From an uncultured Candidatus Peribacteria bacterium (GTDB taxonomy: Bacteria; Patescibacteriota; Gracilibacteria; UBA1369; UBA12473): a stretch of DNA of 64,000 nt. The notes below the pieces were generated by a model. That model searched no databases, was not told the DNA's origin, and was given only the letters and a program-made list of their open reading frames with translations. Every line of letters begins with the position of its first letter. Position 1 is the stretch's first letter. The DNA lies in the NCBI GenBank assembly GCA_964459205.1, contig CAYWKJ010000001.1, positions 2,759 to 66,758 of the forward strand. Direction: 5' to 3'. The translations under genes and the position numbers were made by a program. This document shows, piece after piece, positions 12,075 through 48,233 of the stretch.

Positions 12075-12102
12075 TTGACAATTTTAAGGCTTTTGCCATA
12101 AT
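12075..12102 (+). promoter_or_regulatory. Putative promoter of element E1
   Basis: GGGTTGACA, 16 nt spacer, CATAAT. It starts 14 nt after the mfd stop codon. The same GGTTGAC-16-TATAAT layout precedes E2 and E3, and E5 has GGTTGACA with a 17-nt spacer and TAAAAT. Confidence 0.5.
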
Positions 12103-12190
12103 GAGATCCTGAATTTATTCGGGTCTGTTTTTTGGGCGTAAGATTTGATACCCATTTTGGGCGCTAGATTTTCCCCAGCTATGCAGAATT

Positions 12191-12659
12191 GACAACTGGA
12201 TGATAGATTTTGACGTTGGCTATTTGTTACTCATTAAATTGGGTGATGGTTAGCCAGCGTCAATATGCCATAGACGCTTGAGCAGAAGGAGTCCTGATGA
12301 GTAGAGTGATGCTGATCCTGCCAGGAGTATTGGCCTGGCTATGCCGAGGGATCGGGGGAGCTGAAGAGCTATACCCTCTGGTCCCGGCCATGTTTCCCGG
12401 TCGTGAGCCACCTCCGGGACGCGTGGAAAGAGTGCTCCCGCCTGAGGGGCAGCCGGTCACGGTCGTGCTGGTGATGCTCTGTTCGAAGGGCGAGACGTGC
12501 GAGGAGCTGTTCTGCCCGCACGAGGAAATCTGCCCGTATGATGACTGGCCGGTGGGCGGCACCCCAAGCTAGTTTGGGGCTGGAAAGCTAAAAAGCTTGC
12601 GTTTGCGGAAGGGGGAGGCGTCGTCTCCCCTGGTGTGAGGTTTCTATCATCCAGTTGTC
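12191..12659 (+). other. GC-rich helix-bracketed cassette E1 (arm to arm, 469 nt)
   Basis: Perfect 16-nt inverted repeat: GACAACTGGATGATAG (12191-12206) and CTATCATCCAGTTGTC (12644-12659). A 13-bp hairpin at 12210-12263 has one U-G wobble valid only on the + strand. Three GC-rich hairpins precede the 3' arm. Confidence 0.65.
12297..12572 (+). CDS. Hypothetical small protein inside E1 (91 aa, or a shorter Cys-rich C-terminal product)
   Basis: AAGGAG lies 5 nt before the ATG. The distal half has G/C-ending codons. GC-rich DNA also leaves the opposite strand open, so coding status is uncertain. Confidence 0.35.
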   Translation: MSRVMLILPGVLAWLCRGIGGAEELYPLVPAMFPGREPPPGRVERVLPPEGQPVTVVLVMLCSKGETCEELFCPHEEICPYDDWPVGGTPS

Positions 12660-12720
12660 CAAAGCCTTCAAACCAATTATGATTGGCTTACAGAAATTCT
12701 TGATTGCTCTTTTACACCAC

Positions 12721-13156
12721 GGGGATGTCTTGGTTTTGACAGGAAGAGTTCTGTCTTACTCACGGCCGTTACGGGATCGCGCTGTCTCCCGTTAGATCCG
12801 TCCAGCGCATATATAATTGCAAATTCTGAATTTGCTAAATCAGTTAATTACTGGGCAAACAAATTTGTTCCTCAGGGAATGAAGACTGTTCCTGCCTTTG
12901 CTTAATTATCAGATTTACAGATCGCCCTTTGCGCGATCGCGCCTTTTTAAGGATTGCTTTACGACTTATTTAGGCGTCATTTAGTAAAGATCGGAATTAA
13001 AGTGGAGGTTCAGCACTTTATGCCCTAAATTTTCCTTGTCCATTTATGAGAGCTTTTTGTTCGTCCTTTATTCTCATAAACATTAGAACGAACTATAACG
13101 GTAGATGTGGTAGGCAGCCTTTTTGGACGCGGGTTCAACTCCCGCCATCTCCACCA
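12721..13156 (+). ncRNA. ssrA: tmRNA (ssrA), 436 nt
   Basis: 5' GGGGATG pairs with 3' CATCTCC, including the G3-U wobble, followed by ACCA. 5' GGTTTTGACAGG resembles the conserved tmRNA 5' block. The 3' end GGACGCGGGTTCAACTCCCGCCATCTCCACCA nearly matches E. coli ssrA as I recall it. The tag frame runs from GCA at 12819 to TAA at 12903-12905. Confidence 0.9.
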
Positions 13157-13162
13157 GATTTT

Positions 13163-13822
13163 ATGTATGATGCGCCTTTTTATATCACCGGCAATCATGG
13201 GAATAATGCGTTTTCTTATGAAAAGCGTGGTGAAAATCCGCGGCTTTACGTGCCTTCATTAATTGAAGGTGATTTTCGTGATTTAAAGGTTGGGAAAGAG
13301 ATAGTATTTGAGGATTTTGAGGATGGTGAATTAAAGAGCTGCGAAGGGCTTAAGAATTTTGTGAAGATGGAGATTTTGGGAACGCCAACCGTGATTTTTG
13401 ATAATCATAATCATGCTTTTTATTTTTGGCATGAACAAGGCTTTAAGGACGCGATATTAATTCATGTGGACCAACACAAGGACACGCGTAAACCGAATGA
13501 ATGGTTTAAGGAAGATGCGTTTAAATACACAAACGAAGTTTTGAATGTTGGGAATTATATTCCGCCGGCCGTAGAGTGCGGGATGGTTAATGAGGTGGTT
13601 TCGATAACGGGTAATGCGGGATTAGACATGGTACCGAGACAGGGAAATGTGGTTTTAAATCTAGATCTAGATTTTTTTGTGGCGGAGATGGAGATTGATT
13701 TTGAAAAGGCACGGAAGTTTTTGCGGGCACAGGCCAAGAGGGCGGATTTTATTACAGTGGCTACGAGCCCGTTTTTTATAGGTCAAAATGAGGCACTTAA
13801 AATTTTAAAGAAGTTGTTTTAA
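13163..13822 (+). CDS. UPF0489-like hypothetical protein
   Basis: Start moved to ATG 13163, because the tracked 13046 start overlaps the tmRNA. Motifs FDNHNHAFYFW, HVDQHKD and LDLDFF resemble the UPF0489 family. Confidence 0.5.
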   Translation: MYDAPFYITGNHGNNAFSYEKRGENPRLYVPSLIEGDFRDLKVGKEIVFEDFEDGELKSCEGLKNFVKMEILGTPTVIFDNHNHAFYFWHEQGFKDAILIHVDQHKDTRKPNEWFKEDAFKYTNEVLNVGNYIPPAVECGMVNEVVSITGNAGLDMVPRQGNVVLNLDLDFFVAEMEIDFEKARKFLRAQAKRADFITVATSPFFIGQNEALKILKKLF

Positions 13823-13886
13823 TAGAATGGCTTGCTAGGCGAGAGGCTTTCCTTTATTTTAATGCCTTAAATTTAATCTGCCCCCA

Positions 13887-14699
13887 ATGCCCCCAAGAGG
13901 CGAGCCACAACTTTCGAAGGACCAGGCTAGAATGCCGCGATTTACTCTAACAAGAGGGATGCGGGATGCTTTTCTTGCCTTTAATCTTGATAAATGGGAG
14001 GCGGGCGGCTTGAAGGACTGGATTAGACATAGAGTGGGACTGGCGTATCAAAGAGGGGGTGATAGCCCGATTACATTTTTATCAGCTGGATGTGCAAGTG
14101 CGACCGACATTAATCAAATTGTGGATAGCTTAAGGCTCACTAACCGGGGAGTTAGGCACAGGATTATTGGATTAGGTTTGGATTTAAATCCTGTACCAGA
14201 ATTGGCCCAAAGGGTGCAGCTGCCTTTTGAAAGAGTTGAAAGGCCAGATTTTAAAATTCCGGCATTAAGAGGAATTCAATTAATGCGCGGCGATGTAGCT
14301 GATATGCATATGTTACCAGACAGTAGCATCGATGGGTTATGGTTAATGGGCGTAATGGCTTATGTGCGAGATAAATTAGCAGTCTTGAATGAAATAGACA
14401 GAGTTTTAAAGCCTGGAGGTTTTAGTTTTGCCTCATCGGTTGGCGCGGCCCTTACTGGTCCGCCATTAGAGGAAATCTTAGAAGACACACAAGGGGGAGA
14501 AAATTTTTCTTTATATAGAGATCAAGGCGCTTATCCCAGCATGGGAGGGCGCTGTGTAATTGGATATTATAAGCCAGAGGATCCTAGAGATAATGAATTT
14601 AGAGGATTTGATTATGAGTTTACAACAGCTCATCGTGTTCGCTCAAATTGCCCCCCAGGCTCTCACAGAGAATTGTTTTGTTGCAGCGAATATCGCTAG
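13887..14699 (+). CDS. Class I SAM-dependent methyltransferase-like protein
   Basis: 270 aa. FLSAGCASATD is motif I-like, and VLKPGGFSF is also present. The start codon is uncertain. Confidence 0.45.
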   Translation: MPPRGEPQLSKDQARMPRFTLTRGMRDAFLAFNLDKWEAGGLKDWIRHRVGLAYQRGGDSPITFLSAGCASATDINQIVDSLRLTNRGVRHRIIGLGLDLNPVPELAQRVQLPFERVERPDFKIPALRGIQLMRGDVADMHMLPDSSIDGLWLMGVMAYVRDKLAVLNEIDRVLKPGGFSFASSVGAALTGPPLEEILEDTQGGENFSLYRDQGAYPSMGGRCVIGYYKPEDPRDNEFRGFDYEFTTAHRVRSNCPPGSHRELFCCSEYR

Positions 14700-15469
14700 G
14701 CCGCCTTCTTAATTCCACACAAATAATAATGATTATCGTTTTCGTGAGCCTCAAAAGTTTCGGTTTGCTTGAAAGACTTTCTTAGCCTCCTAAAAGGGAT
14801 CATGGATTCATAAGCAAGTGGGACCTCATCGTCTTGGTGAAGATCTTGATAGGCTTCAGGATTGGTAAACCATTGATCAGCTAGGCCAATAAATCCACCA
14901 GATTTAGTGACACGTTCGATTTCAGAGGCGGTTTGTTTTTTGATTTTTTCATGAAGATTGCTAAAAAGAAATCCAGCTAAGCAAATATCAACCGAGCCAT
15001 CTTTTAAAGGGATTTCATGAGCAGACCCAACGATTCCTTTGGAGGTGCGCAGCTTTTCATAAAAGCGACTCTTTAAAAGTGAGCTAATAAGGGCGTGAGG
15101 AAATTCAAAATTCCGTTCTTGATTTTTAGAAATTACGCGTTCAGAAACATCAAGCATTATTAGTTTAACCTTATGAAGAAGATCTACGCGGGCTAGTTCT
15201 TGCATAATAAAAAGCGAAGTTAGAGCTCCAACAGCTGGCCCGAGGTCTAAGACTGTAATGCGTTTCATTCTCTCAAAGCGTCTTTTTTGATTAAAAAGAT
15301 ACATGCGAAACCCGCGCGTTAGGCCCAGATTTCCCTCAATCACAAAATAATCATTCATTAATTTTTCTTGGATGTAATTGTCTAGCCCCCCAAAACGAAT
15401 AATTGACGAAGTGATGAAGTCTTCGCAGGTTGGGGCGGGACCCGACTTTTTGTGTAAATTGTTTGACAC
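14696..15469 (-). CDS. Class I SAM-dependent methyltransferase
   Basis: 257 aa. Has VLDLGPAVGALT (motif I), MLDVS and TKSGGFIGLAD. Confidence 0.55.
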   Translation of the reverse strand: MSNNLHKKSGPAPTCEDFITSSIIRFGGLDNYIQEKLMNDYFVIEGNLGLTRGFRMYLFNQKRRFERMKRITVLDLGPAVGALTSLFIMQELARVDLLHKVKLIMLDVSERVISKNQERNFEFPHALISSLLKSRFYEKLRTSKGIVGSAHEIPLKDGSVDICLAGFLFSNLHEKIKKQTASEIERVTKSGGFIGLADQWFTNPEAYQDLHQDDEVPLAYESMIPFRRLRKSFKQTETFEAHENDNHYYLCGIKKAA

Positions 15470-15584
15470 AAGATTGCGGTGAAGATATTATGTTCCTTGC
15501 CTGATTTTTGGCTTAAAAAAGCTATTTATAAGCTTCATCTTATTAAGAAATTAAAAAATTGTCAATGGTCTTTAACAAAATATT

Positions 15585-16349
15585 ATGCTCGAAACACTTA
15601 TTCACTTAGGGCTTCCTAAAAAAGAAGCACAAATTTATTTGGCCTTATTAGAGCTTGGGCCCTCGTCAGTAACACAGATTTCTAAGCGCGCTAAAGTGCC
15701 AAGGACAAACGCTTATCATCTTTTAAACTCACTTGTGTCCCAGGGTTTAGTGAGTTCCCAAGAGGCTGATTCAAAAATGGTTTTTGCCGCGGCTGATCCT
15801 AAAATATTAACTAAAATGTTAAAAGATAAACGCGATGAATATGAGCGGCTTTGTAGGGAGGCTGATAAGTTTATTCCTGAGCTGCAGTCGGTTTACAATA
15901 AGGGCGATAACAAGATGAAGGTTAGATTTTTTGAGGGGGTAGAGGGGGTGATTAGTGTTTATGAAGACACTTTAAATTCTAAGAGTGAGATTTTGGCGTT
16001 TGCGTCAGTGGAGAATCAGCACGCATTTTTCCCTGGATACTTTCCGGCGTATTATACGCGACGAGCTAAAAAAGGGATTCCAGTGAGGTGTTTTGCGGCC
16101 GATAGCGAAGAGTCGCGGCGAATTCAAAAAATGGATGAAGTGCATTTGCGTCGAACTTATATTGTGCCTAGTAAATTCGAAATTTCTCCAGAAATTAATA
16201 TTTATGATGACAAGGTGGCAATTTTTTCTCTTAGCGAAAAATTCGGCGCCATAATAGAAAGTCCTGAAGTTGCCAACGCTTTCCGTAAAATGTTTGAGCT
16301 CGCTGATGAACGAGCTTCAGAATATGATAAAGATTTTAAAAAGTCTTAA
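15585..16349 (+). CDS. TrmB-family HTH transcriptional regulator
   Basis: 254 aa. The N-terminus LGLPKKEAQIYLALLELGPSSVTQISKRAKVPRTNAYHLLNSL is typical of TrmB winged helix. Confidence 0.7.
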   Translation: MLETLIHLGLPKKEAQIYLALLELGPSSVTQISKRAKVPRTNAYHLLNSLVSQGLVSSQEADSKMVFAAADPKILTKMLKDKRDEYERLCREADKFIPELQSVYNKGDNKMKVRFFEGVEGVISVYEDTLNSKSEILAFASVENQHAFFPGYFPAYYTRRAKKGIPVRCFAADSEESRRIQKMDEVHLRRTYIVPSKFEISPEINIYDDKVAIFSLSEKFGAIIESPEVANAFRKMFELADERASEYDKDFKKS

Positions 16350-16906
16350 ACTCGTTCGCAATATTCTCCAGTTTCAGTGTTTATGCGGATGGTGTCACCT
16401 TCTTTTACAAAAATAGGGACTGAAATCATAACTCCAGTTTCAACTTTGGCTGGTTTGGTAACTTTTCCCTGGGCGGTGTCCCCACGAACAGCAGGCGAGG
16501 TTTCAATTACTTTTAAATTAACTTTTGGTGGCAACTGGACATTAATTGGCCTGCCGTCAAAGTTTTGAATATCTACGTCAGACCCGTCTAAAAGATAGTT
16601 GGCCTGGGATCCAAGATCGTCTTTAGAAAAGGAAAACTGTTCGTAAGTTTCAGAATCCATAAAAAAGTACTCATCTCCTTGATGGTATAAAAATTGCGCA
16701 CGAGTAAATCCCACCTCAGCTGGTTCGATTTTTTCGCTTCCTTGGAAAGTCATAGGGATAGTGTTGCCAGTAAGCAGGTTTTTGACTGTAGTTTTCATAA
16801 CGCCACCGCCACGAGCTTGTTTAGAAAAAGAGGAGCTAGTTATGACGTAAGGCTCGCCTTTAACTTGAATAGCGGTTCCCACCCGAAGTTGAGCAATTGA
16901 GTACAT
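16346..16906 (-). CDS. efp: Translation elongation factor P
   Basis: 186 aa from ATG 16906 (MYSIAQLRVG..). Three OB-like domains with EF-P-like sequence. The tracked longer start overlaps the neighbouring gene. Confidence 0.85.
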   Translation of the reverse strand: MYSIAQLRVGTAIQVKGEPYVITSSSFSKQARGGGVMKTTVKNLLTGNTIPMTFQGSEKIEPAEVGFTRAQFLYHQGDEYFFMDSETYEQFSFSKDDLGSQANYLLDGSDVDIQNFDGRPINVQLPPKVNLKVIETSPAVRGDTAQGKVTKPAKVETGVMISVPIFVKEGDTIRINTETGEYCERV

Positions 16907-16917
16907 AAAATAATTGT

Positions 16918-18153
16918 TTAAGATTTGTGTAATTTCGGCGCTAGGATAATACCTAAAGCTGTATAAATAAAGATTAAAATTGGAGCGTAAAGGAGTGAAT
17001 TTACGAAAACAGAATGAATTAATAGGCCGCAAAATCCACAAAAAAACCCGAGAGCAAGGGGCTCGCGCCTTTTGTGAAAGCTTGTCCAAAGAATTGTGAC
17101 AATGAGCCAAAGATAAGTAGCTGCACCCAGGATTCCAGTGGTGGCCAGGATAGTAAGAATAGTGGAGTCAGAGCCGGTGGCGGCATGATGTGTATCTTCG
17201 GTCATAAATCCATAGCGAGCTTGAGCGTTAGCGTAAGTGTTATAGCCGACGCCAAGTAGAGGATGGTCTTTGAAAATTGTGAGAGCATTGCCCCAAGAAT
17301 CTAAACGGAGACGAGCCGAGGCGTCTGGTAGTTCATAAGTTTCGGTTACAAATGATTTAGCACTAAAGTAAAGATCTTCCACGCGATCTTGGGCCCGACT
17401 AGACACGGAAACCAGAAGAAGACAGGCAATAAAACCAATAAGTAGTAATTTGCGCGACTTTAAGAGTCCAATTAGGCCAACGCCAGCAATTAAAGCTAGA
17501 TAAGCGCTGCGGGAATAGGTAAAGGCGAGCGCCATAAGAAGAATAGCCAAGAGGCCGGCTAAGGGGATTTTTTTTGGCCATTTTTGGCGATTAGTAAGTT
17601 TGCCAATGGCGAGACACGACACAAAGGCGAGCATTCCTCCTACAAAATTAGGATCAAACCAGGTAGAAAGTAAGCGGTTTTGATGCGGGTCCCAGCCTTC
17701 TTCTAGGGCCATTTGAGTGAAATCAGGGTAAATTTTGAGCTGGATAAAGCCAAATATCGCTATTAGAAATGCGGCTCCAAAAATTATATTGGTTAACTTG
17801 CGACGCGTTGGCACATGACTAGAAAGGTCAAGTGCCATAAAAAACAAAAAGAAATATTCAATGAAACGGATTAGATAAAGACTGCTTCCAAGGGTTTCCC
17901 CAAAAGATAGAGCCCGTGCGCCATTTATTAGTGAAATAAAAGCAATGGCTATGAAGATTAAGAAAGGCAAAAGCAGGGCGCTGTATGGCCAGTGGCGATC
18001 TATGAAAATTTTGTAAATTACAAAAACTCCAATTGTCCCGGCAATTAACAGATCATTGGGCAAGATTTCTGGCCCAATTGGTAAGCGCCCAAGTTCGCCG
18101 AGGGCAACGAACAGAAAAATTAAGCCAAAAAGAAAAGTAAATAATTTACGCAT
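16918..18153 (-). CDS. O-antigen ligase / Wzy_C-domain membrane protein
   Basis: 411 aa, about 10 TM helices, with the TYSRSAYLAL loop region typical of the O-antigen ligase family. Confidence 0.6.
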   Translation of the reverse strand: MRKLFTFLFGLIFLFVALGELGRLPIGPEILPNDLLIAGTIGVFVIYKIFIDRHWPYSALLLPFLIFIAIAFISLINGARALSFGETLGSSLYLIRFIEYFFLFFMALDLSSHVPTRRKLTNIIFGAAFLIAIFGFIQLKIYPDFTQMALEEGWDPHQNRLLSTWFDPNFVGGMLAFVSCLAIGKLTNRQKWPKKIPLAGLLAILLMALAFTYSRSAYLALIAGVGLIGLLKSRKLLLIGFIACLLLVSVSSRAQDRVEDLYFSAKSFVTETYELPDASARLRLDSWGNALTIFKDHPLLGVGYNTYANAQARYGFMTEDTHHAATGSDSTILTILATTGILGAATYLWLIVTILWTSFHKRREPLALGFFCGFCGLLIHSVFVNSLLYAPILIFIYTALGIILAPKLHKS

Positions 18154-18208
18154 ATAAAAACAGCTTAAGGTAAGTTGCCTGTTTGCGGCAAGTTGTTAGA
18201 ATGGATTT

Positions 18209-19259: not shown

Positions 19260-19337
19260 AATATTGGGGATAAATAAACGGATTTAAGGGCGGACGAAAA
19301 AATAGCACTTTTTAAGGTGCGTGGCAATAGGGTTGGT

Positions 19338-19981
19338 GACAACTGAATGATGAAAGATGGTTCGAGTCTCCCCGCTCCGGACGGCCTCGGGGCCGAACGG
19401 GCGCGGGGGGGGTCGGGACAATCAGCGGGTCGGGGTCGGGATCTCCTCGCGGGACTGCGGGCTGGGGCCGCCGGGCGCAGGGCCGGTGGTGGCGGTCTGG
19501 CGGAAGTAGCTCCGGGCCTCGGTCGAGAACGAGCCGTCCATCACCAAGTTCTTGACGGCGCGGTTCTGGACATCGAACTCGGCGATGTTGTCCTGGAGCG
19601 TCTGCAGGATGTAGTGGCCGTCCCGGAGCTGGCCATCATCGGAGATGCATTCGGGGACCAGCTTGATCGTGAAGAGGTCGCGAACGAGAACGTCGCCCGG
19701 CTTGATCTTCAGCTTGGGCTGCGCGTTCTTGACGACGAAGACGAAGCCACGGCTGGAGTCGCCCGAACAGTTCGGAACAACCACGACGTAGAAGCCATCC
19801 TTGAGGCCGTTTTTGGTGGTGATGCAGTCGCCCGGCAGGACGATGTGGAAAGTAGGCAGTTTTGCCATGTGAACTCCCTATGGGTTAACGGGGGATGGAC
19901 ACCATTGCTAAGAGGGCGCCGCTTTTTACCTTCAAAAAAAGCAAAAAGCGACACCCAAGCAGCATTCATCATTCAGTTGTC
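19338..19981 (-). other. GC-rich helix-bracketed cassette E2 (644 nt, sense on minus strand)
   Basis: Perfect 16-nt inverted repeat GACAACTGAATGATGA (19338-19353 / 19966-19981). A 14-bp hairpin at 19914-19956 has two U-G wobbles valid only on the minus strand. A 3' hairpin sits at 19382-19395. Confidence 0.7.
19422..19868 (-). CDS. Hypothetical protein, cargo of E2 (148 aa), foreign high-GC codon usage
   Basis: GGGAG lies 5 nt before the ATG. Third codon positions are almost all G/C, unlike every housekeeping gene in the window. The amino-acid composition is balanced. Confidence 0.65.
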   Translation of the reverse strand: MAKLPTFHIVLPGDCITTKNGLKDGFYVVVVPNCSGDSSRGFVFVVKNAQPKLKIKPGDVLVRDLFTIKLVPECISDDGQLRDGHYILQTLQDNIAEFDVQNRAVKNLVMDGSFSTEARSYFRQTATTGPAPGGPSPQSREEIPTPTR

Positions 19982-20134
19982 AAAGTCTATGTTTAGAGAG
20001 AGTTTAACAACTAACTAGTAGTATTAAATTCCACTCTAGTAATATAGATCCGGGTCTATCCCCAGAAGTAGATTGCTAGCGCGAAACATTAGCTGCCCAC
20101 CTCTATGGATGACGGAATTAGGGTGGTGAATATT

Positions 20135-20162
20135 ATTATAGTGTTTTTTGAAAAAGAGTCAA
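20135..20162 (-). promoter_or_regulatory. Putative promoter of E2
   Basis: On the minus strand: GGGTTGACT, 16 nt spacer, TATAAT. Confidence 0.5.
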
Positions 20163-20177: not shown

Positions 20178-20189
20178 TAAAGGATTGGT

Positions 20190-20848
20190 GACAACTGAAC
20201 GATGGTTTTCCGCTCCGAACGACTCCGTAGTCGAACGGGCGGATCAGGGCTTGTTTAGCGGTTGGGGAGGAGCTTGGAGAAGATCTCGGAGAGAGCTCTT
20301 CTCAGGATTGCGAGGCGAGAGTTTGGTACGATTCTGTAGTAGCTGTGAGTGTAAGGATTTACCAGTGGGCGTTCGTACTTTTTGGTTACAACGACCAGCC
20401 TGTGCGTTGGGGTTGTTGTGGCGTGGGTTTCCCCATCAGTTGTTTTGTATAGAGGATAGGTTCCGCTTTTTAGATTCGCATGGCACCGTACCTCGTTGGT
20501 ATCCTGATCTATCCATGCCCATTGTTGGCGGCAGCCGATGCGTACGATGAACCATTCTTTACCAAAAGGATCATTTTCATCGTACTCATATATGCCTCTA
20601 GTGCGGGCAACGCGTGGCAGGGAAAAACCTTCTGGATCGAGGCCTTTTATGGCTAGATCCTTACGAGAGTGGGTCCATTTTCCCCATGCGAAGAGGAAAG
20701 GAAAAACTTTCAAGGCATTGTCCTATGTTGCAGTCTGCCCCATGGCAGTCCTGCGGGTAAGCACCACTATTTCTGGGTGCCACTTTTTATCTTTAAAATA
20801 GTTAAAAATAAGAAGCGACACCCAGGTGTTATTCATCATTCAGTTGTC
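20190..20848 (-). other. GC-richer helix-bracketed cassette E3 (659 nt, sense on minus strand)
   Basis: Arms are 20190-20205 and 20833-20848. They form 15 contiguous bp on the minus-strand RNA, including one U-G wobble that would be a C/A mismatch on the plus strand. A 13-bp hairpin at 20773-20825 has two wobbles valid only on the minus strand. A 3' hairpin sits at 20220-20233. Confidence 0.7.
20255..20713 (-). CDS. Hypothetical protein, cargo of E3 (152 aa, TTG start as tracked)
   Basis: Long ORF with protein-like composition. No similarity to the E2 cargo. The RBS is weak (AGGAC) and the start codon is uncertain. Confidence 0.5.
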   Translation of the reverse strand: MKVFPFLFAWGKWTHSRKDLAIKGLDPEGFSLPRVARTRGIYEYDENDPFGKEWFIVRIGCRQQWAWIDQDTNEVRCHANLKSGTYPLYKTTDGETHATTTPTHRLVVVTKKYERPLVNPYTHSYYRIVPNSRLAILRRALSEIFSKLLPNR

Positions 20849-20939
20849 AAAATCTATATGTTTAGAGAGAGATTAACTACTAGCTAAAGTGTTAAGGCCT
20901 ACCCTAAGGATATAGGCCTGGATCAATTTCCAGTAGTTT

Positions 20940-20967
20940 ATTATAATGCTTTCCTTAAAAAGGTCAA
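20940..20967 (-). promoter_or_regulatory. Putative promoter of E3
   Basis: On the minus strand: GGGTTGACC, 16 nt spacer, TATAAT. It begins 3 nt after the PBP1A stop codon. Confidence 0.5.
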
Positions 20968-39522: not shown

Positions 39523-39534
39523 TTTTAGAGCAGG

Positions 39535-39975: not shown

Positions 39976-40028
39976 AGTGACTAGATTTTATCGACCTTTT
40001 ACGCGTTCGTCCAATTCTGACTGGGTGT

Positions 40029-40674: not shown

Positions 40675-41046
40675 ATGAAAAACATATTTATTCTGCCCTT
40701 ATTTATAATAGTTTTATTTGTAATGACTGCCTGTTCATCTGCCACGCTAGAAAATAATACTGAAAATGCTAGTTTAGTTTTGGCCGAGACTGCTTGCGTG
40801 ATGCTGGATTCAAACACAAGTAATGAAGAAAAAGTAGAATTAGCCAATGCCCTACCTGTTAAATACGGATTTGAAGATCCTCAAAGTATGGATGCATATA
40901 TAGATTCACTTAAAGGCACAGATGAAGCAATTATTCTTGTTGAAAACACCGCCAAAAATATTGGTTTATTTTGCGAAGATATTTTTATTGAAAATGGGTT
41001 GAGCCCGTATGATGTTGCTAGTGAGTCGCTCCAATCAATACTTTAG
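40675..41046 (+). CDS. Hypothetical lipoprotein
   Basis: 123 aa with lipobox VMTAC. Confidence 0.45.
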   Translation: MKNIFILPLFIIVLFVMTACSSATLENNTENASLVLAETACVMLDSNTSNEEKVELANALPVKYGFEDPQSMDAYIDSLKGTDEAIILVENTAKNIGLFCEDIFIENGLSPYDVASESLQSIL

Positions 41047-41943: not shown

Positions 41944-42027
41944 AATTCGCGTTTAAGTATACAGTTTTGGTGGCGTAAAGGGGAGATCTCGTTTAGACTA
42001 AGATTAATTAATTTAACCTCCCTTTTT

Positions 42028-42873: not shown

Positions 42874-42963
42874 GCCAAAACGTAAGGTTTTCTTTAGTCG
42901 CTGGAAAGAACCTCATTTGATGCATGCTCAAATGAGAATCTTCTGCCGTTGGCTTGAATGTGA

Positions 42964-43054
42964 TGGCGGAGAGAGGGGGATTCGAACCCCCGGTGACAAA
43001 AAATGCCACACACGCTTTCCAAGCGTGCTCCTTAAGCCACTCGGACATCTCTCC
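42964..43054 (-). tRNA. tRNA-Ser (anticodon GGA)
   Basis: Cloverleaf read by hand. Acceptor GGAGAGA/TCTCTCC, anticodon loop TTGGAAA, long variable arm, T-arm GGGGG-TTCGAAT-CCCCC, and an encoded CCA. Confidence 0.9.
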
Positions 43055-43077
43055 GTGATGGGTTGTTTAGGGACGAA

Positions 43078-43269
43078 TTAGATTTTTTTGGTCAAGGTAC
43101 GAAGACAACGAGTGCAGACTTTTTTCTTCTGAAAGCTTTTGGAGGCAGCGTCCCAGAGGCGCTTAACCACTAGATTCGGGAGAAAACGACGTTTAGTTTT
43201 GCGTTGGGAATAACTTACGTTGTGCCCAGTAGCGGGACGTTTTCCACAGGTTTCACAGACTTTTGACAT
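43078..43269 (-). CDS. rpmB: 50S ribosomal protein L28
   Basis: 63 aa. [32 protein letters not shown]. Confidence 0.9.
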
Positions 43270-43382
43270 AACAAATAGTTAGATTCGGCCCGCCAAAAAT
43301 ACTATGTGGGCTCCTGTTTGGCAAGGGAAAGTGAGAAGGGGGGGCGCTTGCACCCATGGCGTGGTTCGCGTAAAACAGATGT

Positions 43383-44006
43383 ATGGTAGATATTTATTTC
43401 ATTATTGCGTTGGTGGTGGCCATTACTGTGCATGAGTTTTCACATGCTTGGATGGCTAATTATTTAGGGGATCCTACGGCTAAGTATCAGGGGCGAGTAA
43501 CCCTAAATCCGCTTAAGCATTTGGATGTTTTTGGGACGATTATGTTGTTTTTGGTTGGACTTGGTTGGGGGAAGCCAGTGCCGGTTAATCCACGTAATTT
43601 AAAAAATTTAAAAAGAGATTCCGCTCTGGTTTCGTTAGCGGGGCCGCTTTCTAATATTTTAGTGGCCATAGTGGTGGCTTTTCCTTATAAATATCTGGTA
43701 ATGAATGAGGGGGCAGAATGGATTGTGCTGACTTTGCAGGCGGTTTTTGATTTAAATTTACTTTTAGCGATATTTAATTTATTGCCATTACCGCCCCTAG
43801 ATGGGTCTAAGATTATTGGGGTTTTTGTGCCGCGTCGGCTTGAGCGGATGTATCAAAATTTCTTACATGATGGAATTAAATGGTTTATTGCCGTGATTTT
43901 GGTAGATTCGTTTATTTTTGGCAGGATGTTTGGATTTTCAATCTTGTGGGTAATTATTGGAACTGTGTATCAGTTATTAGCAGGATTAATTTTAATTGGA
44001 ACTTAA
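43383..44006 (+). CDS. Site-2 protease family (M50) zinc metalloprotease
   Basis: 207 aa. HEFSHAW (HExxH) sits in a TM helix, and LPLPPLDG is present. Confidence 0.75.
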   Translation: MVDIYFIIALVVAITVHEFSHAWMANYLGDPTAKYQGRVTLNPLKHLDVFGTIMLFLVGLGWGKPVPVNPRNLKNLKRDSALVSLAGPLSNILVAIVVAFPYKYLVMNEGAEWIVLTLQAVFDLNLLLAIFNLLPLPPLDGSKIIGVFVPRRLERMYQNFLHDGIKWFIAVILVDSFIFGRMFGFSILWVIIGTVYQLLAGLILIGT

Positions 44007-44107
44007 ATTTAAGGTAGAGCAAGAGGTTTTTTTACAGCATCTGGTGTTTTTATATGTGTAAGAGCACAAGATGTGGTTGTTTAAGCCAAAAAATAGCGTT
44101 TTGCTTT

Positions 44108-44136
44108 TTGACGGGAGGGGCCATTTTTAGTAAAAT
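44108..44136 (+). promoter_or_regulatory. Putative sigma70-type promoter driving a plus-strand non-coding transcript
   Basis: TTGACG, 17 nt spacer, TAAAAT. Confidence 0.45.
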
Positions 44137-44143
44137 GTATGCG

Positions 44144-44395
44144 CTCTACTTGGTACGTATTCGATCTTTTAATACTCTCTCACCTATTCTCACCTAAGGG
44201 ATTCCAATATTTCTTTCTGCTGTGGCGGAAAGCGTGAGGTTTCCCACCTGTCTTAACAGGGGTAGTATTTGGATCCCTACGGCCTTAAGCGGAGTGACTT
44301 AAATTTATTTAAGTCCGCGTTTAAGGAGGTCGCCCCAGCTTAGGCTGGGGGGATTTTCTTTATCCCATGGGGAAACCAGGGTTTCCCCCTAGGTA
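44144..44395 (+). ncRNA. Candidate hairpin-dense non-coding RNA (unclassified)
   Basis: No ORF of 60 aa or more. Consecutive strong hairpins: CCTGT-CTTA-ACAGG, a composite stem of about 20 bp at about 44290-44340, CCCCAGC-TTAG-GCTGGGG, GGGAT..ATCCC, and GGGGAAACC/GGTTTCCCC. Confidence 0.3.
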
Positions 44396-44521
44396 ACCCC
44401 CTTCGTTAAGGTTGTTCGTAAAAAGTAAGCTTCGCTAAACTTCGTAAAATTTTCCTCGGGGCCCGCGAGACCCGGAGAAAAATGTTTACTACGTGCGCTC
44501 AGCTTATTTTTGCTCACGCTT
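44396..44521 (+). repeat. Copy A of a conserved module of about 115-130 nt (second copy at 47605-47734)
   Basis: About 94% identity to copy B over roughly 114 nt, by hand alignment. Contains TTGTTC-18-TAAACT, a CTCG..CGAG hairpin, and GGAG followed by ATG of a tiny sORF (44482-44553, MFTTCAQLIFAHAFYILAYQKRL). Confidence 0.7.
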
Positions 44522-44551
44522 TTTATATTTTGGCGTATCAAAAAAGATTGT

Positions 44552-45046
44552 GACAGCACGAGTTTTGGTGGTGGTTAAAGGCGGACCCATGGGCCCGGGA
44601 GGGGGACTCTTCTCGCGGCGCTCGGCGCCGGTCGTCGAATGAGTCCTCGCCTCCTCTGGCGGCCGCAGGTGGGCACTGGGGGAGCGTTCATGGTTGTTCT
44701 CGCCGTCGTCACAGCGGCCGAAGCCACTGCTCAGGGTCGAACGCACACAGTTTCATTCCCAGCACCGGACTTAGATTCCGGTAGTAGTCGAAGTATTCAG
44801 TTTTGCGGTCGCCTAGTAGACGTTCTACTAGGACTTTGGGAACCCGATCAGCCGGCGTATGGCTAGGTCAGGTCCAGCGCCTCGTGGTACGTGATCTCGA
44901 TGTTGCGACCGTGCGTGTCCAGGATCTCGATGTGGTAGTGCGCCTGCATGGCTTCACCTCAAACCTTTCTCCCATTTCTGGGCGACAACCTCTTATACAG
45001 AAGATGAGAAGCTGGCGTCCAGAAATGAGTTAAAACCCGTGCTGTC
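44552..45046 (-). other. GC-rich helix-bracketed cassette E4 (495 nt, sense on minus strand)
   Basis: Arms are 44552-44566 (GACAGCACGAGTTTT) and 45032-45046 (AAAACCCGTGCTGTC). They form 15 bp on the minus-strand RNA with one G-U wobble that would be an A/C mismatch on the plus strand. Confidence 0.65.
44863..44949 (-). CDS. Small ORF in E4 (28 aa, MQAHYHIEILDTHGRNIEITYHEALDLT)
   Basis: GAGGTG lies 5 nt before the ATG. 27 of 28 codons end in G or C. Confidence 0.4.
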   Translation of the reverse strand: MQAHYHIEILDTHGRNIEITYHEALDLT

Positions 45047-45139
45047 AAATGTCAGCCTGCTTTAATGAGGGGTAGCCGTTCCTTGGGGTGGAAGACGAAT
45101 CCTACAATTGCTGCAGGGAAGCCAAAAAGGCTTGGTTTG

Positions 45140-45169
45140 ACCTTAGCGAAGGGCGGGGCTTATTGTCAA
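45140..45169 (-). promoter_or_regulatory. Putative promoter of E4
   Basis: On the minus strand: TTGACA, 18 nt spacer, TAAGGT. This is weaker than the others, but the spacing to the 5' arm (93 nt) matches E1, E3 and E5. Confidence 0.3.
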
Positions 45170-45328
45170 TAAATTTTGCTTATTGACAAAATGGGGCAGG
45201 ACGACGTCGCACCCCCGGCGGTCAGGTTGGGACTTAAACTGGATATGTCAAACCTGTGCTTTAAGTCTTTTTTACCTTGCCCCTGATCGCTCCTTATGTT
45301 AAATTTGCGCTCGCCGACTACCAATTAA

Positions 45329-45403
45329 GCCGAGGTAGCTCAGGGGTAGAGCACACCCATGGTAAGGGTGGGGTCGTGAGTTCAAATCTCATTCTCGGCT
45401 CCA
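45329..45403 (+). tRNA. tRNA-Thr (anticodon GGT)
   Basis: Cloverleaf read by hand. Acceptor GCCGAGG/TCTCGGC, anticodon stem CACCC/GGGTG with loop ATGGTAA, T-loop TTCAAAT, and an encoded CCA. Confidence 0.85.
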
Positions 45404-45438
45404 GTTTCCAACTAATTTAATCTTGATACTTAATTCAA

Positions 45439-45633
45439 ATGAGCAAAGGAAAATCTACATTCTGCGACTGGCGTTGTCCTGATTGCAATAAAACGCATTC
45501 AACAAAGCCTTATAACAAGCGCAATAACGAGACTATTGGAAAAGAATTTTCTAAGTTCTGTAACCAGTGTCGTGCTCACAAGACCTTTTTCAGAAAAGAT
45601 ACGAGCAAAGGAAGCCTTGGAAACAAGCGCTAA
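45439..45633 (+). CDS. rpmG: 50S ribosomal protein L33
   Basis: 64 aa. CxxC..CxxC zinc ribbon with NKRN and KFCNQCRAHK, matching the L33 pattern. Confidence 0.7.
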   Translation: MSKGKSTFCDWRCPDCNKTHSTKPYNKRNNETIGKEFSKFCNQCRAHKTFFRKDTSKGSLGNKR

Positions 45634-45671
45634 ATCTGCGACACTAAGTTACACATTTAACATTTTTTGTC

Positions 45672-47462
45672 ATGGTTCAAAAGTTCCTCCCGCTTACCTT
45701 GATTGGCGTACTTGTTGCCAGTCTTTTTAGTTTAACTGGCTGCGTTGGTGGCCCATCTTTTATAGAAGTGCATTCTTCAAATGAAGGGTATTTAATCGAA
45801 GAGGTTCTTCCACACGATACTTGGTTTGCCTTAAGTGTTTCTACTTTGGATATAAATCAACAAACCTTTTTTCATGATTTTGTAGCGCGTTTTACAGATG
45901 ATCCAAATGAATTTCGAAACCAAATTTTGTCTGGGATAGATGACAATCTTGCAACCATTGATATGTCTTATATTGATGATATTCAGCCAATTTTAGGCGA
46001 AGAAGGAACGCGATTTATGCTGGCTCTTTCGGAAGGGAATAATGGTGATGCAATTACTCATGCTGGCGTGACATTGCAAGATCCAGAGTTGGCAGAGCAA
46101 TTATTTGAAGATTTAGAAGCTGAGGGACGTTTTGTGCGAAAAGTAGTGAAGGATTATGACCTTTATTTTAATGTGTACGCCGAAGAACAGGAGCAAGATG
46201 TGTTTTATTTTGCAGTTTATGATGATTTGTTTTTGATTGCTAATGATTCAGATGAGTTGGCTGAGATGGTTGATTTAGCAAAAAGTAAAGGTGATTATTC
46301 ATTGTGGTCAAAAGATATTTATCAGGCAGTGACTCAAGAGTTGCCAACTGAACACGTGGGAATGATGTTTATGGACGGTGAATATTTGGCTGGACGTGGC
46401 TCAACGGATTTTGCTGGCATGGGAATTTCTAATAATTTGGCACCTTATTTAGCGGGGCAAGGTATGGCATTTGTGGCTGATGAAGATGGTCTTAAAATGA
46501 GTGGAATTGCTCTTGGTAATCGAGAAAAAATTGACGCTGATGATATGAGTTTGGATGAACTTCAGGCTAAAAAGCGTTATTTGGCAGAAGATATGCCCGG
46601 CGTGAATTTGGGTGTTTATTTAGAATCTTATGATATGGCGCGAGCGATTAAGCAGCAAATGGGTGATGATGAGGGGGCCATGCTTTCGGCTTATATGGCA
46701 CTGCTTGGACTAGATCCTAGTACAGATATTAGTGAGTTTTTATCAGAGGGTTATGCTGTTGCTTTGCATGAAAATAGCGGGTTTTTGCCTGGGGTTACGA
46801 TTATGATGGATGTTTCAGATGGATTTGAAAGCGCAGAAGAGTTGATTGATAATCTGGATGCCCAAATTGCTGGTTTATTAGGAGTATTCCAATTACAAGG
46901 CGGAACAATTGCTGAAGCTATTTCTAAGGAGGAAGTAGAGGTTTTAGGGCGCCAATTTGATCAAATTACTTTAGATTTAGATAGTTTGATGGCTCTTTAT
47001 GATACTACTGGGGCTTTTAGTTTGCCGGATGAAGTTCAAGGTCAGACTGCGGATTTAATTTACGGCGTAACTGATGATCATCGCTTAATTATTTCTACTT
47101 ATGAAGGTTGGGTTGAAGAAATGCATTTGATGTTGGATGATACAGAGGTTTATGAGGAAACTTTGGCTCATTTGAAGGGCTATAAGGAAGGGGTTGTGTA
47201 TATTGATTTTGATGAATTAACAGAGTTTATGAGTGCTTTTGAGGCTTTCCGTGAAGCTCTTCGGAATGATGCTGAGCTTTTGAGCGCCGAAGTAGCAACA
47301 GAGGCTGAGGAGGGGACAGAAGGAGAGATTGTTTCCGATGTTGAGGTAGCAGAAATTGATTGGGATGAGTTTTTGGAACCACTAAAGAGCTTTGCTTTTT
47401 CTAGTAATGCTAGTAAGTACGAAGTTGAGTTAGGAGGTGTGGTTCTGTTGGATGAGGAGTAA
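45672..47462 (+). CDS. Hypothetical acidic lipoprotein
   Basis: 596 aa with lipobox LTGC. Confidence 0.45.
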   Translation: MVQKFLPLTLIGVLVASLFSLTGCVGGPSFIEVHSSNEGYLIEEVLPHDTWFALSVSTLDINQQTFFHDFVARFTDDPNEFRNQILSGIDDNLATIDMSYIDDIQPILGEEGTRFMLALSEGNNGDAITHAGVTLQDPELAEQLFEDLEAEGRFVRKVVKDYDLYFNVYAEEQEQDVFYFAVYDDLFLIANDSDELAEMVDLAKSKGDYSLWSKDIYQAVTQELPTEHVGMMFMDGEYLAGRGSTDFAGMGISNNLAPYLAGQGMAFVADEDGLKMSGIALGNREKIDADDMSLDELQAKKRYLAEDMPGVNLGVYLESYDMARAIKQQMGDDEGAMLSAYMALLGLDPSTDISEFLSEGYAVALHENSGFLPGVTIMMDVSDGFESAEELIDNLDAQIAGLLGVFQLQGGTIAEAISKEEVEVLGRQFDQITLDLDSLMALYDTTGAFSLPDEVQGQTADLIYGVTDDHRLIISTYEGWVEEMHLMLDDTEVYEETLAHLKGYKEGVVYIDFDELTEFMSAFEAFREALRNDAELLSAEVATEAEEGTEGEIVSDVEVAEIDWDEFLEPLKSFAFSSNASKYEVELGGVVLLDEE

Positions 47463-47492
47463 TTTCGTGCTATAAATTGGCCAGCACATTGT

Positions 47493-47566
47493 AGGGGCGT
47501 GGTGAAATGGTATCACAGGGGTCTCCAAAACCTCTAGTGCGGGTTCGATTCCTGCCGCCCCTGCCA
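47493..47566 (+). tRNA. tRNA-Trp (anticodon CCA)
   Basis: Acceptor AGGGGCG/CGCCCCT, anticodon loop CTCCAAA, T-loop TTCGATT, and an encoded CCA. Confidence 0.9.
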
Positions 47567-47572
47567 TTAAAT

Positions 47573-47596
47573 CGCAGGGACAAACCTGCGGTTTTT
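47573..47596 (+). terminator. Rho-independent terminator after tRNA-Trp
   Basis: CGCAGG-GACAAA-CCTGCG followed by GTTTTT. Confidence 0.6.
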
Positions 47597-47604
47597 CCCC
47601 ACGC

Positions 47605-47734
47605 ACCCCCTTTTCCCTAAAAGGTTGTTCGCAAAAAGTAAGTTTCGCTAAACTTCGTAAAATTTTCCTCGGGACCCACGAGACCCGGAGAAAAATGTTT
47701 ACTACGTGCGCTCGACTTATTTTTGCTCACGCTT
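47605..47734 (+). repeat. Copy B of the conserved module (see 44396-44521)
   Basis: Same layout as copy A. The sORF at 47695-47742 encodes MFTTCARLIFAHAYL. The module ends 17 nt before the E5 3' arm. Confidence 0.7.
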
Positions 47735-47751
47735 ATTTATAATTGAGTTGG

Positions 47752-48112
47752 GACAAGGTGATAGTGAGTTCGTGTCCCTCCTGCCGCCGTATATGGGCAG
47801 GTAGGGAGCGCTCGAAGAGTGTTTCAATGATAGTTTCCGCCTAAAGGCGTCTTTTCAAAGAATATCTCACCAATGGGAGCTGATCGCTACGCCGCTGCTA
47901 GAGGCCGCGGAGAGCGGCTTCGATGCCAGCGACGAGACATCCAATCCCGCCGGACACGCTAAGCCCAATAATGAAAAGACTCATTGAGCCTCCTATGTAA
48001 GAGAATGCGCCCACAAGGGACGCGACTAACCTTGGCTCATTCCGAAGGCAGCCACAAACTGGTTTTACAAATAAGCTCATGGCTGGCTTCGGAAGCCTAC
48101 TATCACCTTGTC
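47752..48112 (-). other. GC-rich helix-bracketed cassette E5 (361 nt, sense on minus strand)
   Basis: Perfect 14-nt inverted repeat GACAAGGTGATAGT (47752-47765 / 48099-48112). A hairpin of about 17 bp at 48034-48097 lies next to the 5' arm. Confidence 0.65.
47898..47984 (-). CDS. Small hydrophobic peptide in E5 (28 aa, MSLFIIGLSVSGGIGCLVAGIEAALRGL), type-I-toxin-like
   Basis: Consensus AGGAGG lies 4 nt before the ATG. It predicts a single TM helix rich in small residues. The tracked 60-aa version starts inside the 5' hairpin with no RBS. Confidence 0.45.
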   Translation of the reverse strand: MSLFIIGLSVSGGIGCLVAGIEAALRGL

Positions 48113-48204
48113 AAATCCTGCTTAGGCACGAGAAACGAATACGCATCGGGGATGGATTCGTATCTACGGTTGATTTGCAGGCCTGGGCAATTCCCAGGAG
48201 GGGT

Positions 48205-48233
48205 ATTTTAGGTTGGAAGGATTAATTTGTCAA
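48205..48233 (-). promoter_or_regulatory. Putative promoter of E5
   Basis: On the minus strand: GGTTGACA, 17 nt spacer, TAAAAT. The -35 contains the TGA stop codon of the upstream gene. Confidence 0.5.

Follow-up and report, generated by a model that had tools for sequence, protein, structure and literature searches.

Helix-enclosed, GC-rich small-gene modules with a folded leader and their own promoter in a small clade of uncultivated Peregrinibacteria

Long-range helices that join the 5' and 3' parts of one RNA are already known from rRNA precursors, phage T7 mRNAs and type I toxin mRNAs, and acceptor-like substrates of RNase P are likewise known. Here we describe five modules, E1 to E5, in a 64-kb stretch of bacterial chromosome (the window). 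Each consists of a promoter, a folded leader and a small gene, rich in guanine and cytosine (GC), that is enclosed by a helix between two inverted-repeat arms. Several copies of this self-contained module are present in a small clade of uncultivated Peregrinibacteria. The combination appears to be new: a conserved, structured leader, a helix whose foot is conserved while its interior covaries and is specific to the locus, a pair of terminal hairpins, a promoter belonging to the module and a small open reading frame (ORF) with an extreme GC content at third codon positions (GC3), in multiple copies that are gained and lost as a unit. We found no description of it in the full-text literature and no match in Rfam 15.

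In RNase III stems (16S and 23S rRNA precursors, phage T7 early mRNAs), distant flanks pair as the module arms do, the leader and trailer are removed, and the units of an array are excised separately. Unlike these stems, the modules enclose the mRNA of a small protein, have a helix of 14-19 bp with a 4-bp GACA/UGUC foot and carry a structured leader; their cleavage is only predicted. With RNase P substrates (pre-tRNA, pre-tmRNA, pre-4.5S RNA and external-guide-sequence complexes) the modules share a leader ending in U, a first G-C pair and an A/C-rich overhang, which is ACCA in three of them. They also lie in tRNA-operon-like arrays and beside genes for tRNA and transfer-messenger RNA (tmRNA). 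However, the modules possess no T-arm or cloverleaf and mostly no RCCA, and their helix exceeds the 12 bp formed by an acceptor stem stacked on a T stem. The mRNAs of type I toxins (hok/Sok, aapA1/IsoA1, tisB, zorO) are also highly structured small-protein mRNAs with distant 5'-3' pairing, and the peptide of E5 resembles a toxin. In the modules, however, a leader of ~90 nt lies outside the helix, and the encoded proteins (the cargos) reach 313 aa and include a predicted secreted one.

Integron cassettes and phage "morons" are small, compositionally distinct genes added at recurring sites, as the modules are, and a moron-like promoter and terminator of its own accompany the gene. In contrast to integron cassettes, the modules are not promoterless and have no attC, integrase or attI, and their repeats flank the gene and act as RNA on one strand; in contrast to morons, their context is not a prophage. 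Correia/NEMIS and ERIC elements resemble the modules in their co-transcribed inverted repeats, whose RNA helices are possible nuclease targets, and some of them carry promoter hexamers. They are non-coding miniature inverted-repeat transposable elements (MITEs) of 100-150 bp with target duplications and near-identical copies, whereas the modules have arms that differ between copies, ORFs inside, no duplication and a tiny copy number. The cis-acting leader RNAs HK022 put and EAR consist of two adjacent stem-loop domains, together ~85 nt, immediately behind the transcription start, are better conserved than their surroundings and precede hairpin-rich sequence, as the module leader does, but no sequence or covariance-model similarity to the module leader was detected.

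The window is a stretch of housekeeping chromosome with mfd, dnaN, an RNase J gene (5250-7208), pheST, topA, PBP1A, smpB, tmRNA and tRNA genes. It was placed in the Peregrinibacteria/Peribacteria of the candidate phyla radiation (CPR), since the syntenic loci come from metagenome-assembled genomes so named and its closest proteins are so named. HIP1-like GCGATCGC sites occur in it and had suggested a cyanobacterium, a placement overturned by this synteny and these protein names. All four of its tRNA and tmRNA genes encode CCA, the background GC is ~0.41, and the host genes have a GC3 of 0.33-0.35. This genome (species W) was read as 64 kb and its relatives as ~20-kb pieces; around the related loci, the analysis covered flanks of 10 kb on either side. 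The relatives comprise species A (locus L006), species B (L014, L160-164 and L171-176), species C (L071, L165-166 and L169-170), species D, E and F (L173, L183 and L184) and distant Peregrinibacteria (L177-182). Ordinary protein-coding DNA is only ~70% identical in nucleotides among species W, B and C. A metagenome scan with a DUF3352 alignment gave 9 loci, the distant ones without modules. When contigs were scanned with the 16-mer TTGACAACTGRATGAT, both arms were present in 3 among the at least 120 loci listed, and the rest were mostly chance matches; viral contigs scanned with an arm and with the E4 leader gave single chance matches or none.

An earlier sequence-only reading, made without database searches, had proposed five inverted repeats around five GC-rich islands, each with its own promoter. 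All five repeats were recovered by a repeat search, at 12191-12207 / 12643-12659 (E1, + strand; 17 nt, 100% complementary), 19337-19362 / 19957-19982 (E2), 20189-20204 / 20834-20849 (E3, 94%), 44551-44566 / 45032-45047 (E4, 94%) and 47752-47765 / 48099-48112 (E5; 14 nt, 100%). A scan of the 64 kb for GACA...TGTC pairs that are 12 nt or longer and contain no more than one mismatch returned the five module pairs and one chance-like pair of 12 nt. In block-shuffled sequence, ~7 inverted repeats reach 14 nt or more when any sequence is allowed; by our estimate ~7/256, or ~0.03, of a GACA-starting repeat would be expected, and five were observed. The helix of E2, E3 and E4 is one pair longer (TGACA/TGTCA). 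The GACA/TGTC outer end, which had been taken as constant, holds for all five modules of the window. It is not universal, since one family member in species B closes with AAAGCACAGGTTTGAC.

The islands have a GC of 0.54-0.585 against the background. On the module strand, E1, E2, E3 and E5 each possess a sigma-70-like promoter that matches the consensus at 11 of 12 positions; that of E4 (TTGACA-18-TAAGGT) is weaker and scores below the threshold of the promoter scan. One further 11/12 match in the scanned regions lies outside any module (15463-15491, +). From the scan coordinates, the distances between the -10 box and the 5' arm are 88, 153, 91, 93 and 92 nt for E1 to E5, and three promoters lie 14 (E1), 3 (E3) and 0 nt (E5) from the preceding stop codon, both as first reported. 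What follows immediately downstream of a module, in the same orientation, is tmRNA, tRNA-Thr, a conserved hairpin RNA or a further module. The proposed layout of promoter, leader, closing helix, 5' hairpin, Shine-Dalgarno sequence with ORF, and 3' arm is real and is conserved across species.

The evidence favours a structure that acts at the RNA level, on the strand of the ORF. When the first 14 bp are compared across 11 closing helices from four species, five positions deviate from Watson-Crick pairing (~4 of them independent); all five are G·U in the sense orientation, and neither A·C nor transversion mismatches were found there. Uncompensated arm substitutions in further copies had been named as evidence against the structure; none was present in these 14 bp across the 11 modules. 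One G·U pair occurs in E3, one in E4 of the window and three in the E4 counterpart of species B, although the leader and arm of this counterpart are otherwise ~90% identical to those of W. The claim that the imperfect internal arm positions of E3 and E4 are G·U on the ORF strand only is thus borne out and extends to species B. The 5' hairpins behave similarly. Some of their columns are U·G in 5-7 of 7 sequences, and pairs are kept through U·G, CG/UG and UA/GC exchanges, for example from UUU/AAA in W to UGG/CCA in B. These hairpins had been listed for E1, E2, E3 and E5, where they are present; the list was incomplete, because E4 also has one, which is kept by compensatory changes in species B.

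We folded full-length transcripts, as the sequence-only reading had suggested for the arm-to-arm RNA. The arms were paired and the 5' hairpin was formed in both the minimum-energy and the centroid folds, with z = -8.1, -7.1 and -4.8, and the leader and the closing helix are predicted to fold independently in this context. The interior of the module, that is, the coding sequence and the 3' untranslated region (UTR), folds no better than composition-matched shuffles (z -0.2 to -1.7). On these values, we reject the idea that the interior has been selected for exceptional stability of its fold. At the foot of the helix in the ten GACA modules, the nucleotide at -1 is U and that at +1 is G in 10/10, and the 3' overhangs are ACCA (3), ACAA (3), CCAA (2), CAAA (1) and GUUU (1). 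An overhang of the RNase P type is exact in 3 of these; ACAA or CCAA is seen in 5, and the motif is absent in 2.

A common leader fold was found in E1, E4, E5 and E2, in which a P1 hairpin is followed by a P2 helix that encloses P3. Compensatory changes occur at 13 of the 23 predicted leader pairs, and a covariance model trained without one of the leaders still detects that leader with E=6e-4. Between W and B, the E4 leader is 89% identical, as compared with 79% for tmRNA and ~70% for coding DNA. The covariance-model search that had been suggested was run over ~300 kb of Peregrinibacteria DNA. It recovered only the known modules of this clade and nothing in distant Peregrinibacteria, and the family is therefore considered to be small and confined to one clade. 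No named RNA family fits the modules, as the sequence-only reading had anticipated. At the gathering threshold, Rfam 15 detected only the tmRNA and three tRNAs in the window, and scans of the five module regions at permissive E-values gave only chance-level matches to microRNA and long non-coding RNA families. Neither ARAGORN nor Rfam detected a tRNA-like structure in the modules.

Comparison between species shows what is gained and lost. At the tmRNA locus, a module is present in W (E1) and A, and the site is empty in B and C, where the gap between mfd and tmRNA is ~30-90 nt. At the PBP1A-lipoprotein locus, W has two modules with their own promoters (E2 and E3), B has one and F has none. Species C has two modules at this locus that share one promoter, and a second copy of the 150-nt leader separates them. 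The empty PBP1A site of species F places the ends of the block 3 nt after the stop codon, where the -35 box lies, and 2-3 nt beyond the 3' arm. Corresponding modules occur in W (E4) and B at the M50-tRNA-Thr locus, where all that C retains is the leader's 3' half. E5 has so far been seen in W alone. The package that had been described from arm to arm is thus a real module, but the block that is gained or lost is the whole stretch from the promoter to the 3' arm, as the empty sites in B, C and F show. Four modules were found with identical sequence and orientation, at the consensus level, in 6, 5, 5 and 3 independent assemblies. Between species, the scaffolds are 74-93% identical and the interiors are almost unalignable.

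Species B possesses a further module on the opposite strand directly upstream of tRNA-Thr (L171 8530-9591, +). It has the same leader architecture, a cargo with a signal peptide and the AAAGCACAGGTTTGAC closing helix mentioned above. A remnant of this module is present in the window at 45195-45262, where the 3' arm GTCAAACCTGTGCTTT (45247-45262) and a shortened 3' hairpin are left and the leader and cargo are lost; species C likewise keeps its 3' hairpin and 3' arm. Since the 3' hairpin is retained too, the sites in W and C are deletion remnants and not virgin sites. The possibility that a 3' arm is pre-existing target DNA that was copied in inverted form is ruled out by the same observation.

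The E1 promoter (TTGACA-16-CATAAT, 12075-12102, +) follows the stop codon of mfd, which was assigned by Pfam. Its leader (12104-12190, +) consists of the P1 hairpin, the P2 closing helix with an inner hairpin, and AUU; the fold has z = -2.6 and follows the covarying consensus, and the covariance model gives 76 bits. The 5' arm, GACAACTGGATGATAGA, is followed by a 5' hairpin (12210-12263, +) whose U·G pairs are valid on this strand only and which shows compensatory changes against the L006 counterpart. The cargo ORF (12297-12572, +) encodes 91 aa with a Cys-rich C-terminus, has a GC3 of 0.72 and is preceded by the Shine-Dalgarno sequence GAAGGAG; its sole database copy is the contig L001 described below. 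A GC-rich 3' hairpin was predicted by folding at 12611-12630 (+). The tmRNA gene begins 62 nt downstream of the 3' arm on the same strand.

E3 and E2 follow each other on the minus strand. The E3 promoter (TTGACC-16-TATAAT, 20940-20967) lies behind PBP1A, which was assigned by Pfam, and is followed by the leader (20849-20939; 94 bits with the covariance model), the 5' arm (20834-20848), which forms one U·G pair with the 3' arm, and the 5' hairpin (20773-20825), identified in the hairpin alignment. The cargo ORF (20255-20713) encodes 152 aa from an uncertain TTG start and has a GC3 of 0.51. A conserved 3' hairpin, CCGCCCGTTCG...CGTTCGGAGCGG (20210-20242), comes before the 3' arm (20190-20204); after the arm stand ACCA and a terminator, which shares nucleotides with the -35 box of E2. 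The E2 promoter (TTGACT-16-TATAAT, 20135-20162) precedes a leader of 153 nt (19982-20134; 101 bits), in which an extra 5' domain of ~60 nt precedes the standard ~90-nt leader. The 5' arm (19965-19981) and the 5' hairpin (19914-19956; hairpin alignment) precede a cargo ORF (19422-19868) of 148 aa with a GC3 of 0.88 and two "L.DG.Y" beta-type repeats. The 3' arm (19338-19354) comes after a 3' hairpin (19371-19404) and is followed by ACCA and a terminator-like hairpin. A U-rich run after the P1 hairpin in E1 (12108-12133) and E2 (20049-20066) was flagged by the terminator scan, and E4 has no such run; attenuation within the E1 and E2 leaders is a possibility.

The E4 promoter (45140-45169, -) is conserved in species B. 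Its -35 box is overlapped by a perfect 10-bp palindrome, TTGTCAATAA-N7-TTATTGACAA (45163-45189, -), which is kept in species B; the palindrome looks operator-like and suggests that E4 may be controlled by a repressor. The leader (45047-45139, -) was identified by folding, alignment and the covariance model. The 5' arm GACAGCACGGGTTTT (45032-45046, -) is followed by the imperfect 5' hairpin missing from the first list (44971-45029, -), which was detected by folding and by comparison with species B. The cargo ORF (44863-44949, -) encodes a His-rich peptide of 28 aa with a GC3 of 0.97 and is followed by a 3' UTR of 294 nt with a GC of 0.62. The 3' arm (44552-44566, -) carries the one G·U pair.

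The E5 promoter (TTGACA-17-TAAAAT, 48205-48233, -) overlaps the stop codon of an ORF at 48230-49174. Downstream lie the leader (48113-48204, -; fold z = -3.9, with covariance), the 5' arm GACAAGGTGATAGT (48099-48112, -), a 5' hairpin predicted by folding (48035-48097, -) and the cargo ORF (47898-47984, -), which encodes a hydrophobic, Gly-rich peptide of 28 aa behind the Shine-Dalgarno sequence AGGAGG. A 3' hairpin (47775-47807) precedes the 3' arm (47752-47765, -). The ORF immediately upstream (48230-49174, -) encodes 314 aa and has no match in Pfam or PADLOC. Both this ORF and E5 are missing from the matching DUF3352-Smr interval of species B and C, a variable spot beside tRNA-Trp.

Because a Shine-Dalgarno sequence precedes each sense-strand cargo ORF and the codon positions are markedly asymmetric, we regard these ORFs as coding, a judgement made from sequence features. 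The GC at codon positions 1/2/3 is 0.59/0.42/0.88 in E2 and 0.68/0.39/0.95 in the first module of species C (module a). Among other cargos, GC3 is 0.85 in species B, 0.95 and 0.83 in species C and ~0.97, by hand count, in the E4 ORF of species B. The cargos of the tmRNA locus are Cys-rich proteins of 77-91 aa. Those of the PBP1A locus have 93-313 aa, "L.DG.Y" beta-type repeats and a common C-terminal motif, Y-R-Q-T-G-x-T-V-P. The E4 cargos of 28 aa (W) and ~40 aa (B) are recognizably related and can be aligned, and an acidic cargo, that of the species-B module upstream of tRNA-Thr, is predicted to be secreted. The E2 cargo is a distant homologue of the second species-C cargo of the same locus (BLASTP E=4e-5), and no similarity was detected between the E2 and E3 cargos. 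Thus, the earlier description of the cargo ORFs as unrelated was too strong.

No cargo was assigned to a family in Pfam, PHROGs or PADLOC, and a sequence search of the PDB gave only two chance-level matches (E ~0.2). For the E2 cargo, a word-indexed search of 5.8 billion proteins returned no homologue, and an exhaustive phmmer search gave only weak matches to immunoglobulin (Ig)-like/SprB repeats. None of the searches run returned a close homologue of any cargo outside the clade. AlphaFold run on a cargo protein without an alignment gave a predicted local distance difference test (pLDDT) score of 40.

The cargo genes had also been called foreign-looking. This is probably misleading, because a GC3 of 0.83-0.97 is retained by every counterpart module in W, B and C. 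Since this high GC3 is common to the three species despite a gene identity of ~70%, the GC richness seems to be maintained and not recently imported. The interior 3' UTRs are also GC-rich (0.53-0.75). Given that the interior is no more stably folded than its shuffles, this richness is not explained by selection on the fold.

From the observed architecture, conservation, strand-specific pairing and gain and loss as a unit, we infer a course of transcription, cleavage and stabilization, and roles for the proteins, as follows. Our favoured reading, held tentatively and at somewhat short of even confidence, is that the closing helix acts as a processing and stability clamp of the mRNA, in imitation of a tRNA acceptor stem or of a stem cut by RNase III. 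The near-consensus sigma-70 promoter would fire, and the first ~90 nt would fold into the two-domain leader, P1 and then the P2 helix enclosing P3. After a further 3-4 A/U residues, the 5' arm would pair with the 3' arm several hundred nucleotides downstream to give a helix of 14-19 bp, stacked beside the long 5' hairpin and the GC-rich 3' hairpin. An endonuclease would then remove the leader and trailer at the foot of the helix. RNase P is a candidate, which would read U(-1)|G(+1)...C-A/C-C-A-A as an acceptor-stem mimic; an RNase III-type enzyme is equally a candidate. In Bacillus subtilis, RNase J is blocked by structured 5' ends. The trimmed mRNA, with both ends in duplex, would resist 5'-3' decay by RNase J and also 3'-5' exonucleases. 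The outcome would be sustained expression of small, fast-evolving proteins, some of which look secreted, membrane-active or metal-binding. The clamp would also let a module be excised from longer transcripts.

Two observations point to RNase P and a maturation route of the tRNA type. First, the foot of the helix has U at -1, a first G-C pair, and ACCA, ACAA or CCAA in 8 of 10, and the tRNA and tmRNA genes of the window all encode CCA. Second, the modules stand in arrays or directly upstream of tmRNA, tRNA-Thr or a stable RNA, as in tRNA operons. A further hint comes from a Logan contig of 978 nt (L001, run SRR8146440), which corresponds to 12177-13154 of the window. Its first nucleotide lies 14 nt ahead of the E1 5' arm, and the 3' end of the mature tmRNA is 2 nt beyond its last. 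These bounds would fit a contig derived from a transcript, with co-transcription of E1 and tmRNA and removal of the leader, and would be an odd coincidence for a DNA assembly. Exact-protein look-ups for similar transcript-like contigs of E2 and E5 returned none. The tmRNAs of the window and of L006 have no obvious promoter of their own and may be transcribed from the E1 promoter.

Several points weigh against the clamp. At 14-17 bp, the helix is on the short side for classical RNase III cleavage, and the full range of 14-19 bp is borderline against the duplex of about two helical turns, cut with a 2-nt stagger, that typifies such stems. Only 3 of 10 modules have an exact NCCA-like overhang, L006 has none, and one family member closes without a GACA start. 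The hint from L001 is one of contig boundaries. The GC richness is not accounted for, as the interior folds no better than shuffles. Finally, the extreme conservation of the leader suggests a role beyond removal by cleavage, for example in the recruitment of a nuclease or in a put-like modification of RNA polymerase.

A translational lock of the type I toxin kind, in which the 5'-3' helix and the hairpin would keep a harmful mRNA inert until it is processed, under the control of an antisense or trans-acting RNA, is an unlikely alternative. Long-range 5'-3' pairing is a hallmark of the hok and aapA1 mRNAs, which the pairing in the modules resembles. When the cargos were compared with the size and character of small hydrophobic toxins (< ~60 aa), the E5 peptide, which has a strong Shine-Dalgarno sequence, fitted. 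That of E4 is small (28 aa, with ~40 aa in the species-B counterpart) but polar, and the others have 77-313 aa. The lengths of 91-313 aa and the signal peptide of one cargo argue against such a lock. The same is true of the position of the 5' arm, which is not at the 5' end of the transcript but behind a leader of ~90 nt, and of the Shine-Dalgarno sequence, which is not sequestered by the arms in the predicted folds. No antisense promoter stood out in the promoter scans, and Pfam and PADLOC gave no matches.

We consider it similarly doubtful that the modules are a cassette platform, in which the conserved scaffolds would serve as homology arms or recombination sites for swapping in GC-rich genes from outside, as in an integron but with own promoters. 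The contrast between alignable scaffolds and almost unalignable interiors, the sharp switch of composition between them, the adjacent E2 and E3 with the same arms and dissimilar cargos, and the presence or absence of modules at the same site in different species would all fit this explanation. However, a weakly constrained interior is expected to be poorly alignable at the ~70% identity of the housekeeping genes, so that this is not by itself proof of cassette swapping, and cargos at counterpart loci retain residual homology. Close homologues of the cargos outside the clade were not found, including in the two large searches made with the E2 cargo, and the modules are identical in the 3-6 assemblies of each species. 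The modules also differ from integron cassettes in that the repeats flank the ORF in place of a single attC hairpin and four of them have their own 11/12 promoter.

No integrase, transposase, recombinase or reverse transcriptase was detected in ~50 ORFs of the window, and none in the flanks of the related loci except for a serine recombinase, not of the IntI type, at L172; transposases were absent from the 64 kb and from the ~20-kb pieces of the relatives. At L172 (54-2411), in one assembly of species B, a helix-turn-helix gene and this large serine recombinase gene lie just upstream of the M50 peptidase gene. At L171, from the same species, unrelated genes occupy that position. The position is thus an integration hot spot ~1.5 kb from the modules, which are identical in both assemblies.

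An undescribed system at the RNA level, in which the leader and the acceptor-like clamp would mark mRNAs for a dedicated fate, is likewise improbable in our estimation. Such a fate could be excision by the tRNA machinery into nuclease-resistant mRNAs. More speculatively, it could be packaging and hand-over to the host of an episymbiotic CPR bacterium.

A DNA-level element, with the arms as MITE-like terminal repeats or as the crossover sites of an invertible segment, is very unlikely. Repeats of 14-19 bp around segments of 0.35-1.2 kb with a common outer TGACA/TGTCA would suit it, and the -35 box at the left edge of the module is also TTGAC(A). However, the flanks are not direct repeats and no target-site duplication was found at the modules. 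A recombinase or transposase that could have explained the arms was absent from the window, and in the flanks of the related loci the L172 serine recombinase was the only one. The promoter and leader, which stand outside the repeats, come and go with the rest of the block, whose start at the promoter is ~120-180 nt outside the 5' arm, unlike in a MITE or insertion sequence. Mismatches of the G·U type on one strand are not predicted by protein recognition of DNA, and arms that differ between loci would need several recombinases, none of which is present in the window. All assemblies of four modules, 3-6 for each, show one orientation at the consensus level, and no invertase was found. Neither the ORFs of the window nor the Pfam assignments listed for the related loci include a reverse transcriptase domain such as a retron would have. 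Nor was there a sign of a diversity-generating retroelement or hypermutation, with zero differences among assemblies, no reverse transcriptase and no internal cargo repeat. Ongoing hypermutation or inversion is thus rejected at the consensus level.

The least probable explanation is that the interiors are non-coding structured RNAs and the ORFs by-products of GC richness, since, although GC-rich DNA yields long ORFs on both strands (an antisense ORF of 223 aa in E2), no cargo has a database family and the E4 interior is mostly 3' UTR, the sense strand shows strong codon-position asymmetry with a Shine-Dalgarno sequence before each ORF, peptide motifs common to the species survive, and the fold is no better than that of shuffled sequence.

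Two further RNAs were observed beside the modules. Directly downstream of E4 and E5 lie two 94%-identical copies of a rod-like RNA of ~120-140 nt (44408-44524 and 47621-47737, -). It also occurs after tRNA-Trp in species B and C, where there is no module, and L181, from a distant Peregrinibacterium, has it too. Compensatory changes are seen in its stem (GUAAA...UUUAC vs GCCGCAA...UUGCGGC). Rfam contains no match to it, and it seems to be a conserved non-coding RNA of the phylum that has not been described before. The tmRNA of the window (12721-13156, +) is a long one of 436 nt; its predicted tag of 28 residues, ANSEFAKSVNYWANKFVPQGMKTVPAFA, is also unusually long, and the tag region differs in B and C.

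CPR bacteria are uncultivated, have very small genomes, and their handling of RNA is almost unknown. This clade devotes several kilobases to repeated modules with strong promoters, in which the leader is more conserved than tmRNA and the coding parts use codons in a way that is foreign to the genome at large. The covariance model of the leader is a direct means to take a census of the family. If the GC richness is selected and not inherited from a donor, the question arises what holds synonymous sites at a GC3 of ~0.9 in an AT-rich genome. Hand-over of the mRNAs to a host cell, if true, could explain why a GC3 of up to 0.97 is held across species in a 41%-GC genome. If the clamp is true, the modules would be a compact natural design for long-lived mRNAs in an organism of the RNase J type, and they would provide a handle on small proteins that matter for the symbiotic lifestyle.

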